Shown: piece after piece, positions 2,351 to 6,865 of the stretch
Layout of the letters: every line of letters begins with the position of its first letter
Numbering within the stretch: the first letter of the stretch is position 1
Source: a virus
Lineage: Duplodnaviria; Heunggongvirae; Uroviricota; Caudoviricetes
IMG/VR virus record: IMGVR_UViG_2534682109_000012
Strand: one strand, 5' to 3'
DNA length: 8,892 nucleotides
The notes under the pieces: model-generated
The model's database searches: none
Told to the model about the DNA's origin: nothing
Seen by the model: only the letters and a program-made list of their open reading frames with translations
Position numbers and translations under genes: made by a program

Positions 2351-2752
2351 TCACGCCCGGCGGCTTTTTTGTGCCGCCAGCCACCTAGCAATGGTTTCTT
2401 CCATTGATTTTTTCTTGTCTTTGATTTCTTGAAGCATTTTTTCTTGGTCTTCCTCAGGAAACGCACTAAAAGCTTGGAGCAGTTCGCGTTGGCGAGGACC
2501 AATTTTCATCGTGTCAGGGGTGAAAATTTGCTCACACTCTTCAGGAGGCAATAAAAACCAATGCAATGGATGCCCTGAAACCTCAACCAGTTTATCCAAA
2601 CTTGAGGCTTTAGGTGTAGCCTTACCGCTGACCCATTGTTGAACAGTTTGTTGTGTCACACCAATTCTACGGGCAAGCTCAGCCTGGCTCCATCCAGTTT
2701 CCTGAAGAAGCTTGCTGATTCTGTACATAGATACTTCTAGGGCGCTCATCAT
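2351..2752 (-). CDS. paaR2: HTH (XRE/DicA-like) transcriptional regulator, PaaR2-like; CI-equivalent repressor of the immunity region
   Basis: Helix-turn-helix WSQAELARRIGVTQQTVQQWVSGKATP; the C-terminal LPPEE...RELLQAFSAFPEEDQEKMLQEIK segment resembles the DicA C-terminus, and there is no S24 peptidase domain. It is divergent from the Cro-like gene and first gene of the TA operon. The start is ambiguous (ATG at 2752 or 2749, neither with an SD), possibly leaderless. Confidence 0.8.
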   Translation of the reverse strand: MMSALEVSMYRISKLLQETGWSQAELARRIGVTQQTVQQWVSGKATPKASSLDKLVEVSGHPLHWFLLPPEECEQIFTPDTMKIGPRQRELLQAFSAFPEEDQEKMLQEIKDKKKSMEETIARWLAAQKSRRA

Positions 2753-2760
2753 TATTCAAT

Positions 2761-2766
2761 TTTACA
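2761..2766 (-). promoter_or_regulatory. Candidate -10 element (TAAAAT) for a leaderless regulator transcript
   Basis: On the minus strand TAAAAT lies 8 nt upstream of the regulator ATG and no SD is present, reminiscent of lambda pRM / cI. The -35 is weak. Speculative. Confidence 0.2.
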
Positions 2767-2790
2767 GGTAAATACTGTTAAAAGCATCAC

Positions 2791-2825
2791 AATAAAAAAC
2801 TGTTGATTGCATACAGTTTTTTATT
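2791..2825. promoter_or_regulatory. 35-bp perfect palindrome (13-bp arms AATAAAAAACTGT / ACAGTTTTTTATT, 9-bp spacer); candidate OR-like operator in the divergent promoter region
   Basis: Read directly: 2791-2803 is the reverse complement of 2813-2825. It lies between the divergent regulator and Cro-like genes, and an extra half-site-like AATACTGTTA sits at 2771-2780. Same core as the 1755-1792 palindrome. Confidence 0.5.
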
Positions 2826-2837
2826 GTAGGCTTTGCT

Positions 2838-2856
2838 TATAGTTTTTAGAGGAGGG
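2838..2856 (+). promoter_or_regulatory. Candidate -10 (TATAGT, 2838-2843) and RBS (GGAGGG, 2851-2856) for the rightward Cro-like operon
   Basis: TATAGT is a 5/6 match to TATAAT and GGAGGG lies 4 nt before the ATG at 2861. The -35 region would overlap the right arm of the palindrome. The short distance from -10 to RBS implies a very short leader; uncertain. Confidence 0.3.
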
Positions 2857-2860
2857 CAAA

Positions 2861-3133
2861 ATGCTAGATAGCACTCGCGAAAAAATTAGGCAGAAATACA
2901 CTCAGGCTGAAATAGGTCGTTATATGGGGGTCGCTCAACAGACTGTTTGGCAATGGTTTAGCTTTGGCGTTCCCCCAAAGCAGGTAATTCCGTTATGCCA
3001 ACTAATGAAGTGGGAAGTTACCCCGCATGAAATCCGCCCAGATATTTATCCTAACCCAACCGACGGTTTACCTGTTGGATGTAAGGTTAACACATCAAAT
3101 GCGCCGGAGTTGATTCATGAAAATCAAGCATGA
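2861..3133 (+). CDS. ydaS: Cro-like HTH DNA-binding protein, YdaS family (90 aa)
   Basis: HTH TQAEIGRYMGVAQQTVWQWFSFGVP followed by the EV..HEIRPDIY motif I associate with the YdaS family. It is divergent from the repressor with a strong RBS. Symbol by synteny and family resemblance, from memory. Confidence 0.7.
   Translation: MLDSTREKIRQKYTQAEIGRYMGVAQQTVWQWFSFGVPPKQVIPLCQLMKWEVTPHEIRPDIYPNPTDGLPVGCKVNTSNAPELIHENQA
3110..3127. promoter_or_regulatory. Perfect inverted repeat TTGATT-N6-AATCAA at the ydaS/ydaT junction; candidate YdaT (CII-like) binding site
   Basis: Read directly: TTGATTcatgaaAATCAA. It overlaps the ydaT start codon (3117-3119). I recall that YdaT of prophage CP-933P was reported to recognise a TTGATT-N6-AATCAA repeat; that recollection is unverified. 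Confidence 0.4.
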
Positions 3134-3542
3134 ACACATCCGCATGGCGATGAATGCCTGGGCGCATCCGGACGGCGAAAAAGTACCGGCTGCGAAAATT
3201 ACCAAAGCGTATTTCGAGCTGGGAATGACGTTCCCGGAACTGTATGACGACAGCCATCCGGAAGCCATGGCTCGCAATACTCAGAAAATTTTCCGCTGGG
3301 TGGAGAAAGACACTCCTGATGCGGTTAAAAAAATTCAGGCGTTGTTACCAGCGATCGAAAAAGCGATGCCGCCTCCGCTGGTGGCCCGAATGCGCAGCCA
3401 CAGTTCCGCTTATTTTCGGGAGTTGGTAGAGACGAAGGAACGGCTGGTGAAAGATATTGATGATTTCGTTGCATCAGCGATCGTTCTGTTCGATCAGATG
3501 AATCGTGGTGGCCCGGCAGGAAACACTCTGGCTGTGCATTAA
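3117..3542 (+). CDS. ydaT: YdaT-like protein (141 aa), proposed CII-functional-equivalent / toxic regulator of Rac-type prophages
   Basis: Second gene of the rightward operon; it overlaps the ydaS 3' end by 17 nt, with GGAG 8 nt upstream of the ATG. Length and position match YdaT of Rac/CP-933P; sequence family recognised from memory only. Confidence 0.7.
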   Translation: MKIKHEHIRMAMNAWAHPDGEKVPAAKITKAYFELGMTFPELYDDSHPEAMARNTQKIFRWVEKDTPDAVKKIQALLPAIEKAMPPPLVARMRSHSSAYFRELVETKERLVKDIDDFVASAIVLFDQMNRGGPAGNTLAVH

Positions 3543-3555
3543 TTGGGTAATAAAT

Positions 3556-4065
3556 ATGAGTAATGACAAAAAATTGACACTGAGCGTTTACGAAAACAGT
3601 CCGCACATCTGGCGTGGCGGTTTATCTGATGTGGAGCTGGCAGAGTGGTTGATACATAAAGCTAATGCGCTGCTCTGGCGTTTGTCAGCCAGAGAACAGC
3701 GCAAGGAAACCAGAATAAAGCTGGCTGATGCAGAAGCGTGTGCCGGGCTTATTGAGGATTATACAAATCTTGGTATTTCTTCAGCAGAGAGTGATCCCAT
3801 TCAGCCTCTGAGCAGGGAGTCAATCCAGCACGCTGGTTGTATGGCACATCTTGTAACTGCTCGTCAACATGAGGTGGGTATTGGATCACTTCCGGCGGGA
3901 TATTCGCTGATTCCAGAGCTGGTTGAAGCAAGAAAATCAGTTCAGAAAAAGAGAGATGACGCACTTCAATTATTGAGAGAGCACTATGGCGCGATACCAG
4001 AATGCGAACAGCGTCGATACCCTGAAGGTTATGAATGGATGCAGTCTCTTTTTGAAGTTCGCTAA
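3556..4065 (+). CDS. Hypothetical protein (169 aa), unknown function
   Basis: Internal ATG of track ORF 3505..4065, chosen because it starts 13 nt after the ydaT stop (the track start would overlap ydaT). The translation is protein-like (MSNDKKLTLSVYENSPHIWRGGLSDVELAEWLIHKANALLWRL...). No family recognised; weak SD. Confidence 0.5.
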   Translation: MSNDKKLTLSVYENSPHIWRGGLSDVELAEWLIHKANALLWRLSAREQRKETRIKLADAEACAGLIEDYTNLGISSAESDPIQPLSRESIQHAGCMAHLVTARQHEVGIGSLPAGYSLIPELVEARKSVQKKRDDALQLLREHYGAIPECEQRRYPEGYEWMQSLFEVR

Positions 4066-4282
4066 TCAATATGTCGAGACGAAGGTATGTTTCGGCGCGC
4101 AGCCAGGCTCTGTAATCCGGGAGCATTTCGGGGCTGTTACACCAGCGGTTTGTTGCTGCAACATTTAATACATGAGCCTGATAAAGGCTTTTCAAAAAAT
4201 ACATGTCGAACCTCCTCTGGTTCTGTCGATTGGGAACCACAGATTATATCCGGAGGAAGGTTCGGCACCAGATGAGGTAGCC

Positions 4283-5374
4283 ATGCGTGATTACGCAAAA
4301 GTTTCTCCGCGATTCTGGCTGGGAGAAACGGGGAGAGAACTTAGAAAGGCGGGTGCAGAAGCGCAAGTTGTTGCTTTTTACCTGATGACATCCCCTCACG
4401 CAAATATGCTGGGTTTGTATTACCTGCCAGTTTTATACCTTGCTCATGAAACCGGGCTTGGTCTGGAAGGGGCTTCAAAGGGGCTTAAAAGGGCTGTTGA
4501 AGCTGGTTTTTGTAGCTATGACCATGATGCAGAGATGGTCTGGGTCCATGAAATGGCAGCCTGGCAGGTTGGGGAAACGTTGAAGCCTGGCGATAACCGT
4601 TGTGCAGGTGTCAGGAATGAGTATGCATCATTACCTGAAAACGCTTTTCTGTCAGTGTTTTACGACAGATATAAAACGGATTTCCATCTGGATGTGAGGC
4701 GGAATAATAGCCGAAATTCGGTAAGGGGCTTCGAAGGGGCTTTTAAGGGGCTTCGAAGCCAAGAACAGGAACAGGAGCAGGAGAAAGAACAGGAACAGGA
4801 CAAAAACACTATGGTTCATGGCAAAAAAAACACCACGAACCAGGCAGGGGATGTTCAGACCGTCAATCCTGGTCAGCCAGCAGGCACGACACCGGAAGCC
4901 GATTCGGGCGCTGTGCAGCAGGTGATGACCGCAGGGTCGGAGCAATCACACCAACTGCAGCAGCCTGAAGCCGATTCCGCCATTCAGCGGGAAGCCGATC
5001 GGGTAGTCCCGGAAAGCACCGGGCAGTCTGTGGGACGAGTGGATTATCCGGATGTGTTCGAACAGGTCTGGCGGGAATACCCGTTGCGTGCTGGGGCAAA
5101 CCCGAAGAAATCCGCTTTCAGTGCCTGGAAGGCCAGATTGCGCGAGGGGGTGCCACCAGAGACCATGCTGGATGGTGTGAGGCGTTACGCGAGATACCTG
5201 GCGGCGACCGGGAAAGCGGGAACGGAATTTGTTCAGCGAGCGACGACGTTTTTTGGGCCGGACCGGAATTTTGAAAACCCCTGGTTGCTCCCGGTAAGCG
5301 GCACGAACAACCAGCGTTGTGTGAATCATATTTCTGAACCGGATACCGAAATTCCGCCGGGATTCAGGGGGTGA
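4283..5374 (+). CDS. Phage replication initiator / replisome-organiser-like protein (363 aa from this start)
   Basis: ATG at 4283 preceded by GAGGT at 4 nt (the track start at 4172 has no RBS but cannot be excluded). The C-terminal segment FEQVWREYPLRAGANPKKSAFSAWKARL...G resembles the F..FW..YP.K..K..A...W motif of phage replisome-organiser domains. It lies directly upstream of the DnaC-like gene, contains internal iteron-like DNA repeats, and its stop overlaps the dnaC-like RBS region. Confidence 0.65.
   Translation: MRDYAKVSPRFWLGETGRELRKAGAEAQVVAFYLMTSPHANMLGLYYLPVLYLAHETGLGLEGASKGLKRAVEAGFCSYDHDAEMVWVHEMAAWQVGETLKPGDNRCAGVRNEYASLPENAFLSVFYDRYKTDFHLDVRRNNSRNSVRGFEGAFKGLRSQEQEQEQEKEQEQDKNTMVHGKKNTTNQAGDVQTVNPGQPAGTTPEADSGAVQQVMTAGSEQSHQLQQPEADSAIQREADRVVPESTGQSVGRVDYPDVFEQVWREYPLRAGANPKKSAFSAWKARLREGVPPETMLDGVRRYARYLAATGKAGTEFVQRATTFFGPDRNFENPWLLPVSGTNNQRCVNHISEPDTEIPPGFRG
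4467..4496. repeat. Cluster A of 11-bp-phased direct repeats AAGGGGCTT (2 perfect copies plus 1 degenerate)
   Basis: Copies at 4467-4475 and 4478-4486, with a degenerate AAGGGCTG at 4489-4496; the spacing is exactly 11 bp. Lies inside the initiator gene (peptide EGASKGLKRAVEAGF). Confidence 0.6.
4723..4760. repeat. Cluster B of 11-bp-phased direct repeats AAGGGGCTT (3 perfect copies) ending in the palindrome GGCTTCGAAGCC
   Basis: Copies at 4723-4731, 4734-4742 and 4745-4753, 11 bp apart; the palindrome GGCTTCGAAGCC is at 4749-4760. Cluster B is 256 bp downstream of cluster A and inside the initiator gene (peptide RGFEGAFKGLRSQ). Candidate ori iterons. Confidence 0.6.
4763..4801 (+). repeat. 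GAACAG/GAGCAG hexanucleotide tandem repeat encoding an EQEQEQEKEQEQD acidic linker
   Basis: Read directly: GAA CAG GAA CAG GAG CAG GAG AAA GAA CAG GAA CAG GAC, in frame with the initiator gene and immediately after repeat cluster B; followed by an A-rich stretch. Confidence 0.7.
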
Positions 5375-5380
5375 TGTGGC

Positions 5381-6127
5381 ATGAAAAACATTGCGGCAGC
5401 CGGGGTTCTTGAACGTATTCGCAGACTTGCACCACAGGCGTCGGTTCCACCGTACCGGACGGTGGAGGAGTGGCGGGAATGGCAACTTGCTGAAGGACGA
5501 AAACGCAGCGAGGAGATTAACCGCCAGAATCACCAGTTGCGGGTGGAAAAAATCCTGAATCGTTCGGGCATCCAGCCTCTGCACAGCAAATGCTCGTTTG
5601 CGAATTATCAGGTGCAGAACGACGGGCAAAAATACGCGCTGAGCCAGGCCAAATCCATAGCTGACGAACTGATGACCGGGTGCACGAATTTTGTGTTCAG
5701 CGGTAAAACCGGCACCGGGAAAAATCACCTTGCAGCGGCGATGGGTAACCGGCTGATGGCGAAGGGGCGCAGCGTGATTATCGTCACCGTGTCTGATGTC
5801 ATGAGCGTGTTGCATGACAGCTACGACAACGGCAAATCCGGGGAAAAATTTTTACAGGAGCTTTGCAGTGTTGATTTGCTGGTCCTGGATGAAATAGGCG
5901 TTCAGCGGGAGACGAAAAACGAGCAGGTGGTATTACACCAGATAATTGATCGCCGGACAGCATCACTGTGCAGTGTCGGGATGTTAACAAACCTGAATCA
6001 TGCCGCAATGAGTACACTTCTTGGTGAGAGGATTATGGACCGCATGACCATGAACGGTGGTCGATGGGTGACGTTTAACTGGGATAGCTGGCGTCCAAAT
6101 GTCAGCAATATGAGGGTTGTGAAGTAA
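5381..6127 (+). CDS. DnaC-like replicative helicase loader (AAA+ ATPase, 248 aa)
   Basis: Walker A FSGKTGTGKNHLAAAMG and Walker B DLLVLDEIGVQ; long collinear similarity to E. coli DnaC as I recall it (SGKPGTGKNHLAAAI...VDLLVIDEIGVQ...MLTNSN...LGERVMDRM...FNWDSYR). Same length and position as YdaV of Rac. Confidence 0.9.
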   Translation: MKNIAAAGVLERIRRLAPQASVPPYRTVEEWREWQLAEGRKRSEEINRQNHQLRVEKILNRSGIQPLHSKCSFANYQVQNDGQKYALSQAKSIADELMTGCTNFVFSGKTGTGKNHLAAAMGNRLMAKGRSVIIVTVSDVMSVLHDSYDNGKSGEKFLQELCSVDLLVLDEIGVQRETKNEQVVLHQIIDRRTASLCSVGMLTNLNHAAMSTLLGERIMDRMTMNGGRWVTFNWDSWRPNVSNMRVVK

Positions 6128-6148: not shown

Positions 6149-6865
6149 ATGGAAACCGTATCTGACGCACTGAAAGCACTGAAAAAAGCCTCTTCACATG
6201 TGGTGGCAGCTCGCCTTGGAATTAGTCGTGAAGAGGCTGTCAACGAACTGTGGAAACTGAAACGCCGTGGAGAAGCGGATAACAAGGGGGCGATATGGTG
6301 GCTGACTCAGGCTGGTGAAAGTGAACCGGTGTCACCGGTACCGAAAGTGACGGCGCAAATGCTGACAGAGGCGATTGAACAACATGGCCCACAAACGGCG
6401 GATGAACTGGCATTGATGTTCGGAATTACCTCCCGCCGGGCGAATTCATCGCTGGCAATGGCAATCAGCAAAGGGTGTCTGATTCGCGTGAATCAGGATG
6501 GTAAATTTCGTTACTGCATACCGGGCGTTGATTTACCGGCAGAGCCGAAAGCAGCATCCGTAGCTGAAACGGAGGGTAAAGCCCTTCCTCAGCCAGCTGG
6601 TGTTGCGTTACCAGTCCAGGAAACGGCTGCACAGGAAGAAATTAAAACAGAAGCGGTGGAGGACATTGTGAAGTTGCAGCAATCGTTCACTGAAGCGAAA
6701 GCAGATGACCTGATTCTACCATCGCTGCATGTGGCTAACCGCGAGCTGCGCCGGGCGAAAAGTAATGTTCAGAAGTGGGAGCGAGTCTGTGCTGCGCTAC
6801 GGGAACTGAACAAACACAGGGATATTCTCCGGGATATTACCGCCACCAGAGAGCAGCAGCGGTGA
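6149..6865 (+). CDS. Hypothetical protein (238 aa) with two N-terminal winged-helix-like segments and a C-terminal charged helical region
   Basis: ATG at 6149 with GGAGG 8 nt upstream. Two similar segments ([25 protein letters not shown] and [37 protein letters not shown]) look like winged-helix DNA-binding motifs. Occupies the position of ydaW-type genes after the DnaC-like gene. Confidence 0.65.

Follow-up and report, generated by a model that had tools for sequence, protein, structure and literature searches.

The window analysed here, an 8892-base pair (bp) stretch of a Caudoviricetes record (IMGVR_UViG_2534682109_000012), holds genes of the immunity and replication region of a lambdoid E. 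coli O157:H7 prophage. Among them is a gene for a protein of 363 amino acids (aa), a putative replication initiator or replisome organizer, which lies at 4283-5374 on the plus strand and is directly followed by a gene for a DnaC/IstB-like AAA+ helicase loader (5381-6127, plus strand). Inside the 363-aa gene there are two separate arrays of an 11-bp repeat unit. We asked what these arrays are, and we argue below that they are probably iterons, which would be bound by the protein that the same gene encodes and would form the origin of replication of the prophage.

Two arrays of 11-bp units in a putative initiator gene

Exact copies of AAGGGGCTT occur five times in the window, at 4467, 4478, 4723, 4734 and 4745, always on the plus strand. 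The number expected from shuffling is 0.09, and none of 200 shuffled sequences reached five copies; if one mismatch is allowed, a single further match appears, at 6186, which is unrelated. Spacing inside the arrays is exactly 11 bp and the offset from array to array (4723-4467) is 256 bp. In this respect the initial annotation, which had described clusters of 11-bp-spaced repeats 256 bp apart, was confirmed. It had also counted three repeats in each cluster, and this is true of the second one (three exact copies) but not of the first, where two copies are exact and the third is degenerate.

Comparison of the orthologs shows the natural unit to be the 11-mer GAAGGGGCTTC, in which the palindromic arms GAAG and CTTC flank an asymmetric GGG. 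The units abut, and a half unit, GAAGC(C), closes each array. Array 1 (4466-4503, plus strand) consists of two full units (GAAGGGGCTTC at 4466-4476 and AAAGGGGCTTA at 4477-4487), a degenerate third unit that is one G short (AAAGGGCTGTT, about 4488-4498) and the half unit GAAGC (4499-4503). Array 2 (4722-4760, plus strand) has three units, of which the first and the third are TAAGGGGCTTC (4722-4732 and 4744-4754) and the second is GAAGGGGCTTT (4733-4743), followed by the half unit GAAGCC (4755-4760). The arm of the last unit and the half unit together form GGCTTCGAAGCC (4749-4760), which is indeed the perfect palindrome, 12 bp long, with which the second cluster had been said to end. The linker of EQ repeats and the A-rich stretch reported after the repeats are both present as well. 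A (CARGAR)n run on the plus strand (4760-4801, codons 160-173), purine-rich and adjoining array 2, encodes QEQEQEQEKEQEQD, an EQ/QE run that we call the QE run below. The A-rich, locally GC-poor stretch extends over 4760-4860 on the same strand, with an AT skew of 0.5-0.72 and a GC content of 0.40-0.43 vs 0.55-0.68 further downstream; it is the candidate for a DNA-unwinding region.

What is the protein that carries these repeats? In PHROG, the 363-aa product is matched by phrog_1701 ('DnaD-like helicase loader', 9e-149), and its C-terminal half by several families named 'replication initiation protein', while no Pfam family was found at E <= 0.01. For the N-terminal domain (N-domain), sequence searches of NCBIfam and PDB gave only matches to a DnaT-like tail or insignificant ones. 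An AlphaFold2 model, built on an alignment of 17 sequences, has predicted local distance difference test (pLDDT) values of 77-92 for residues about 10-140. Its order of elements is a helix (25-36), a strand (45-47), two helices (50-57 and 60-73), two strands (77-80 and 85-88) and then three more helices. As modelled, the N-domain is a winged helix with the topology H1-b1-H2-H3-b2-b3; Foldseek found the same fold class, below significance. Array 1 coincides with the codons of the predicted H3 (residues 60-73, nucleotides (nt) 4460-4501), and H3 is the helix that usually reads DNA in a winged-helix fold. Array 2 encodes residues 148-159, inside a low-confidence linker (144-170) that is probably disordered. 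After it come the QE run, a long disordered stretch, a helical C-terminal domain (255-324) and the DnaT-like tail.

This tail, the last ~24 residues (...NHISEPDTEIPPGFRG, residues about 340-363, nt 5300-5371), resembles the C-terminal tail of E. coli DnaT. The NCBIfam DnaT match covers DnaT positions 156-179 of 179 and scores 17.8 bits against a cutoff of 201, and DnaT chains in PDB match residues 340-363 with E values of 0.02-0.07. The label 'primosomal protein I' in phage records is therefore explained by the tail. We rejected an identity with DnaT (primosomal protein I) itself, as there is no full-length similarity and only the last ~24 residues match. The tail, PDxxIPxGF(R/K)G, was found on several different C-terminal modules, and the resemblance suggests that it imitates DnaT in order to engage the helicase machinery of the host. 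The product of the downstream gene matches IstB_IS21 in Pfam (4e-19), PRK12377 (1.6e-153) and DnaC (3e-89, with a DnaC score below the cutoff) in NCBIfam, and phrog_50 ('DnaC-like helicase loader') in PHROG; it is presumed to be the partner of the C-terminal domain of the initiator. With its predicted winged-helix N-domain, its PHROG replication families and the adjoining loader gene, the 363-aa gene is credibly an initiator gene.

Conservation of the units as DNA

The first 548 nt of the gene are 100% identical in E. coli O157:H7 chromosomes (548 nt compared), and this 5' part was found in 469 of 5426 complete E. coli genomes. A distant blastn search with the same 548 nt found relatives with 64-77% identity in phages of Escherichia, Shigella, Klebsiella, Acinetobacter and Ralstonia, for example the Shigella phages 75/02 Stx (a Shiga toxin, Stx, phage) and POCJ13 and the Acinetobacter Vieuvirus. 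A scan of one genome per species gave 79 further loci from Enterobacterales, Burkholderiales, Acinetobacter and Legionellales, as well as from assemblies labelled Gemmata, Desulfobacteraceae, Acidobacteriota, Ignavibacteriales and others, among which some metagenome bins are possibly mis-assigned.

In 71 non-identical orthologs, we counted the units (at most one mismatch) over the 620 nt at the start of the gene. The initial annotation had held that repeats absent from orthologous initiator genes would be incidental, and what we see is the opposite: 314 of the 330 units lie at the same two positions of the gene, 143 at gene nt 170-230 and 171 at gene nt 400-560. Successive units are exactly 11 bp apart in 156 of 172 cases. 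Exact copies are similarly confined, with 202 of 213 falling within gene nt 150-560 when all 416 kb of the loci and their 3-kb flanks are considered. Nearly all orthologs have array 1, at gene nt about 185-215, and it is in plus orientation in 98%. Array 2 keeps two or three units and is almost always followed by GAAGCC and the CARGAR run.

Seven further exact AAGGGGCTT units are found 11-37 bp upstream of the start codon of the initiator gene, in either orientation (L004, L026, L033, L036, L037, L053 (Acinetobacter), L032 (Xylophilus sp. metagenome-assembled genome, MAG)). Such an extra unit could be an autoregulatory operator, since this is where an operator would sit. It is a point in favour of a different function of the arrays, in which they are protein-binding sites that serve mainly autoregulation, as a roadblock or operator, or copy-number control by handcuffing, where one protein oligomer could bridge the two separated arrays. 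Iteron-binding plasmid initiators commonly also autoregulate. On the other hand, no convincing unit was found upstream of 4283 in the window, the sites are well inside the coding region, and array 2 is coupled with the CARGAR run, and often with a hairpin, at the joint with the loader-specific domain. The placement of the arrays fits the anatomy of an origin better than that of an operator. We therefore regard a mainly regulatory function as rather unlikely; the two roles are compatible, and autoregulation may be an added one.

The repeats had initially been read as encoding short peptide repeats (KGL / EGA), and if they were incidental coding repeats of a low-complexity segment, this is what one would expect. 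The units do encode tripeptides of this kind, and the peptide EGASKGL encoded by array 1 is conserved. However, 11 is not a multiple of 3, so that successive units are translated in all three frames (RGF / EGA / KGL) and no true peptide repeats result. As the peptide of array 1 is itself conserved, conservation of array 1 alone proves nothing and the synonymous sites have to decide. The codons of E62, G63 and A64 are almost always GAA GGG GCT and those of K66, G67 and L68 almost always AAG GGG CTT. The codon entropy at these six positions is 0-0.19 of the maximum. Elsewhere in the domain, 67 conserved codons have a median of 0.86, and none falls below 0.28 (Mann-Whitney p = 2.8e-5). The codon of S65, the spacer between the two units, varies freely (TCG 29, TCA 13, TCT 7). 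The synonymous freeze holds across genes with an AT content from 33% to 61%.

In array 2 the same DNA motif is kept on either strand while the peptide changes. Here 128 of the 171 units (75%) are inverted (AAGCCCCTT) and 43 are direct, and mixed arrays (++-, -+-, +--) also occur; the all-direct array 2 of the window is a minority state, seen mostly in enterobacterial loci. Inversion replaces EGASKGL by EAPSKPL, i.e. glycine and proline are swapped on the flip; SPLQAPSKPL is a further peptide of array 2. Altogether, the 59 sequences encode 51 distinct 12-aa peptides here, whereas the DNA core carries 1.1-1.95 bits per position, a figure that is biased upward by the preselection of units at <=1 mismatch. 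Frozen synonymous sites, flipped orientations and changed peptides together show that selection acts on DNA sites and not on peptide repeats. That the units are under selection as double-stranded DNA, whatever their frame or orientation, is near certain, and on the evidence of frame, synonymous sites and orientation we reject the peptide-repeat explanation, to which we give hardly any credence.

Distant relatives of the protein (31-47% identity) have other units at the same two gene positions. We find GAAAGGGTTTC in loci of Janthinobacterium, Kaistia and Paraburkholderia, GAAACCCTTTC in a Bacillota MAG, GAAGGGCCTTC, repeated in both arrays, in an Acidobacteriota MAG and GAAGGGGTC in an Ignavibacteriales MAG. 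The N-domain and the units co-occur across phyla. In the GAAAGGGTTTC type both arms are altered together, G4 to A with C8 to T, which would be the behaviour of a site that is read symmetrically and co-evolves with its reader.

Module joint to the right of array 2 and a parallel case

The CARGAR run is present in nearly all orthologs, with varying length and varying synonymous sites. Just past it, at about 4803, the gene has a mosaic joint: in a megablast comparison against phages, only the C-terminal module (window nt 4803-5372) was matched, and the N-terminus of those phages is different. At least 29 C-terminal clusters were counted among the orthologs, combined with the same N-domain, the two arrays and the QE run. 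For example, the N-domain family member P0117 has a PF09524 C-terminal domain (2.5e-26), and the divergent GAAAGGGTTTC subfamily and the main subfamily have C-terminal clusters in common. The gene after the initiator changes as well: it is DnaC-like in 23 loci, belongs in 18 loci to a cluster represented by a protein with a Toprim domain and the annotation DNA primase/helicase, and is something else in the others. N-domain, arrays and QE run travel as one cassette onto many C-terminal and partner modules.

One may ask whether this swapping is what array 2 and the CARGAR run are for, that is, whether they act as a shared linker through which N- and C-terminal modules are exchanged by homologous recombination. 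The breakpoint right after the run, the many C-terminal clusters on one N-domain and the clusters common to both subfamilies speak for it. A recombination joint leaves unexplained, however, the synonymous freeze of array 1, the 11-bp period, the orientation flips and the symmetric change of the unit, and the synonymous sites of the run itself vary. We consider this explanation highly improbable, and the recombination behaviour is probably a side effect rather than a function.

Right of the joint there is an imperfect hairpin or palindrome, TGGTTCATGGC-A8-CACCACGAACCA (4812-4842), which on the minus strand reads as a terminator-like hairpin with a T run. It is kept in Escherichia phage Tritos, Shigella 75/02 and E. 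coli VL7S7, with one compensatory change from T-A to C-G. In 25 of 67 orthologs (37%), the 60 nt that follow the QE run contain a perfect hairpin of 6 bp or more, vs 9% of control windows; the binomial p of 3e-10 for this enrichment overstates its significance, as related loci are not independent. The hairpins have many unrelated sequences and stand in unrelated C-terminal modules. We see hairpins 0-30 nt after the QE run in L014, L016, L017, L022-24, L036, L064, L072 and other loci.

Phage Tritos (L170) offers a parallel case. It has the same C-terminal module as the window, joined to an N-terminus without detectable similarity. A profile comparison of the two N-termini with hhalign found no relationship, and the Tritos protein has no Pfam match, though its record says 'replisome organiser'. 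In Tritos, four direct GTCACG repeats in steps of about 10 bp form a first array (L170 1154-1192), and five or six GTCACG repeats form a second array 260 bp downstream (L170 1414-1462). They are followed by an acidic repeat, (ACAGATAAAGAT)3, encoding (TDKD)n (L170 1461-1496), and then by the same joint. The geometry of two arrays is thus seen a second time, with another protein and another site.

The comparison with Tritos also bears on other repeats of the window. We had considered GAAGCCGATTC, at 4895 and 4967, as a weaker site for the N-domain and rejected it, because it is part of the C-terminal module common to Tritos, which nevertheless has different repeats. The sequence CCGGAAGCCGATTC, encoding PEADS, occurs in three copies in the disordered linker (4892-4905, 4964-4977 and 4988-5001), and its reverse complement GAATCGGCTTC is two mismatches off the 11-bp unit. 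These copies are also found in Tritos, where the N-domain repeats are others, and it is therefore unlikely that they serve as sites of the N-domain in the window.

The surrounding genes belong to the same prophage region. Upstream of the initiator gene there are a cI-like helix-turn-helix gene (2351-2752, minus strand), a YdaS-like gene in the position of cro (2861-3133), a YdaT-like gene (3117-3542) and an ECs1072-family gene (3749-4204, minus strand); a DUF1627 gene is listed after the gene of the DnaC/IstB-like ATPase. Since the ECs1072-family gene separates the cro/YdaT-like genes from the initiator gene and lies on the opposite strand, a rightward transcript starting in the immunity region would have to cross it in antisense before reaching the initiator gene. 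A simple scan for a sigma-70 promoter around the initiator gene found nothing above chance, and no promoter for this gene. In locus L001 (NZ_AP018488), the left part of the window is represented by 2563-3041 and 466-654. Here the prophage has a RelE/ParE-RelB toxin-antitoxin pair adjoining the cI-like gene and the gene of the cell-division inhibitor dicB, and in this strain an ISEc8 element splits a DUF977 gene downstream of the replication module.

A candidate origin and its relation to known systems

The predicted winged-helix fold, the co-occurrence of domain and units and their co-variation make it quite likely, in our view, that the units are bound by the winged helix of their own gene. 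The fuller statement, that the arrays are iterons bound by this N-domain and form the origin of the prophage, we still consider likely. The tandem repeats lie inside the initiator gene with a DnaC-like gene next to it, and they are constrained as DNA sites and not as coding sequence. The reading as a candidate origin, made at first from a single sequence, is thus supported by the conservation in orthologs and by the constraint at the DNA level. The origin would comprise the two arrays, the adjacent (CARGAR)n/A-rich stretch and the short palindrome. Initiator molecules would occupy the abutting GAAGGGGCTTC units of both arrays, the resulting nucleoprotein complex would strain the DNA right of array 2, and the variable C-terminal domain (here with its DnaT-like tail) would then bring in the phage DnaC-like loader with host DnaB.

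Several observations weigh against this interpretation. The weakest inference in it is the role of the A-rich stretch as an unwinding region, because the stretch is not AT-rich in GC-rich orthologs. At 4760-4860 the window is only moderately AT-rich and has no evident classical unwinding element. Across the family, the 60 nt after the QE run have a mean AT content of 0.43 vs 0.45 for the whole gene, and AT-richness right of array 2 as a family-wide trait is unsupported by the orthologs. Furthermore, the distance between the arrays is mostly 266 or 278 nt and ranges from 244 to 362 among orthologs. It is not constant, and we rejected a fixed helical phasing between the arrays.

The last of these observations concerns orientation. 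Since 75% of the array-2 units are inverted with respect to array 1, the two arrays are complementary in most orthologs; the second array is inverted in the GAAAGGGTTTC-unit subfamily as well. The two arrays might form a long-range stem, either in the mRNA, where it would control translation or stability, or in single-stranded DNA, as a structure of the unwound DNA. In Shigella 75/02 (L002 2673-2980) the predicted minimum-energy fold does pair the arrays, with ~22 bp across about 230 nt (z = -4.2). In the window, on the other hand, the arrays are predicted to fold locally and not to pair with each other, and about a quarter of the lineages likewise have direct or mixed arrays (++, +++, ++-, -+-) and keep the motif. 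A stem would allow compensatory drift, whereas the sequence is near-invariant across phyla. Nor would a stem account for the 11-bp periodicity, the half unit GAAGCC or the single copies upstream of the gene, and the analogous arrays of Tritos are direct repeats. As the main function of the arrays we think a stem improbable. The predicted pairing in the mRNA is an alternative or additional selective force.

If the arrays are an origin, a more general reading can be put forward, which we offer only tentatively and take to be possible rather than probable. Initiator and origin would make up a self-contained cassette, in which the DNA encoding H3 is itself one of the two arrays that H3 reads. Between phages of enterobacteria and the prophages in assemblies labelled Planctomycetota, Acidobacteriota and Desulfobacteraceae, this pairing would hardly have changed, apart from symmetric co-variation such as that from GAAGGGGCTTC to GAAAGGGTTTC. 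The cassette, with N-domain, both arrays and QE run, would have been combined as a whole with many C-terminal domains that recruit helicases, and the N-domain of Tritos, without detectable similarity, would have arrived at the same two-array geometry. If true, phage origins of a large and unstudied class would share a general rule of design, and the cassette would be a natural system in which the specificity of a protein and its DNA target are forced to co-evolve in the same nucleotides.

The candidate origin belongs to a widespread module, found in the 469 E. coli genomes mentioned above, in Stx phages of the Eru4 type and in phages of Klebsiella, Acinetobacter and Ralstonia. Replication of Stx prophages drives the dosage of the toxin gene, and the origin and the protein that binds it matter for that biology. 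The gene family is also a clean natural case of overlapping codes, with coding sequence and site array in the same bases, and the traces of this overlap are the frozen synonymous sites, the Gly/Pro swaps on inversion and the symmetric co-variation of site and protein. A compact origin-plus-initiator cassette with an 11-bp unit could be of use for studying how non-AAA+ organizers open DNA.

Iterons inside an initiator gene are textbook knowledge (lambda, SPP1). Literature searches, on the motif itself as well as on iterons of DnaC-type or non-lambdoid modules, found no description of this origin, although subscription-journal and older phage papers may have been missed; to judge from the literature searched, neither this family nor its 11-bp unit and two-array layout seems to have been described. 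To winged-helix plasmid initiators the resemblance is one of fold only (10% identity to RepA_N of staphylococcal multiresistance plasmids, PDB 4pta), and in these, as in the class of pPS10 RepA and R6K pi, the iterons are usually about 17-22 bp long and lie outside the rep coding sequence.

One of the closest described systems is that of Shigella phage 75/02, the type phage of the Eru4 replication unit of Stx phages; this type is defined by gene content only, and the first protein is given as 'of unknown function' (PMC8951638). The paper describes no origin and no repeats (PMC8951638). We find that 75/02 has a 362-aa ortholog (75% identical over the N-terminal 548 nt) with both arrays, followed by a DnaC-like gene, i.e. 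the window module is the same type of replication unit. The difference is that array 2 of 75/02 is inverted relative to the window.

In lambda, the O protein has an origin-specific N-terminus and a C-terminus specific for its partner P, and a palindrome lies right of the AT-rich tract of ori. The analogy to lambda drawn at the outset holds in outline. As in lambda, the sites are tandem repeats in the initiator gene, they are followed by a low-complexity, A-rich stretch, and the exchangeable C-terminal part corresponds to the gene that follows (P in lambda, the DnaC-like loader in the window). It does not hold for the arrangement of the sites: the window has two arrays about 250 bp apart instead of one, its 11-bp units abut whereas the lambda iterons are longer and spaced, and one of its arrays lies in the codons of the third helix of the winged helix and not in an interdomain linker. 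Furthermore, a purine-rich CARGAR repeat stands beside the iterons, not a plainly AT-rich tract. No O-family model was among the PHROG and NCBIfam matches of the N-domain, and there was no Pfam family; the label 'DNA replication protein O' on some relatives is the depositors' annotation only. The origin of lambda and of Stx phages lies inside gene O, and the number of iterons alters the length of the protein (PMC7466680).

SPP1 provides a further comparison. Its oriL, with AB boxes and a DNA unwinding element (DUE), lies inside gene 38, whose product G38P has been assigned to PF09524 (PMC5737612). G38P is a non-AAA+ replisome organizer that binds the repeats in its own gene and works with a separate loader and helicase (PMC5737612). 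A PF09524 C-terminal domain on one member of our N-domain family and the DnaD-like PHROG label are points of likeness, while the sequence of the repeats, the two-array geometry and the hosts (Proteobacteria and beyond) are different. The window protein has no match to PF09524 (Phg_2220_C) in the Pfam search. Judged by this domain it is not a member of the G38P family, but it is functionally analogous to G38P.

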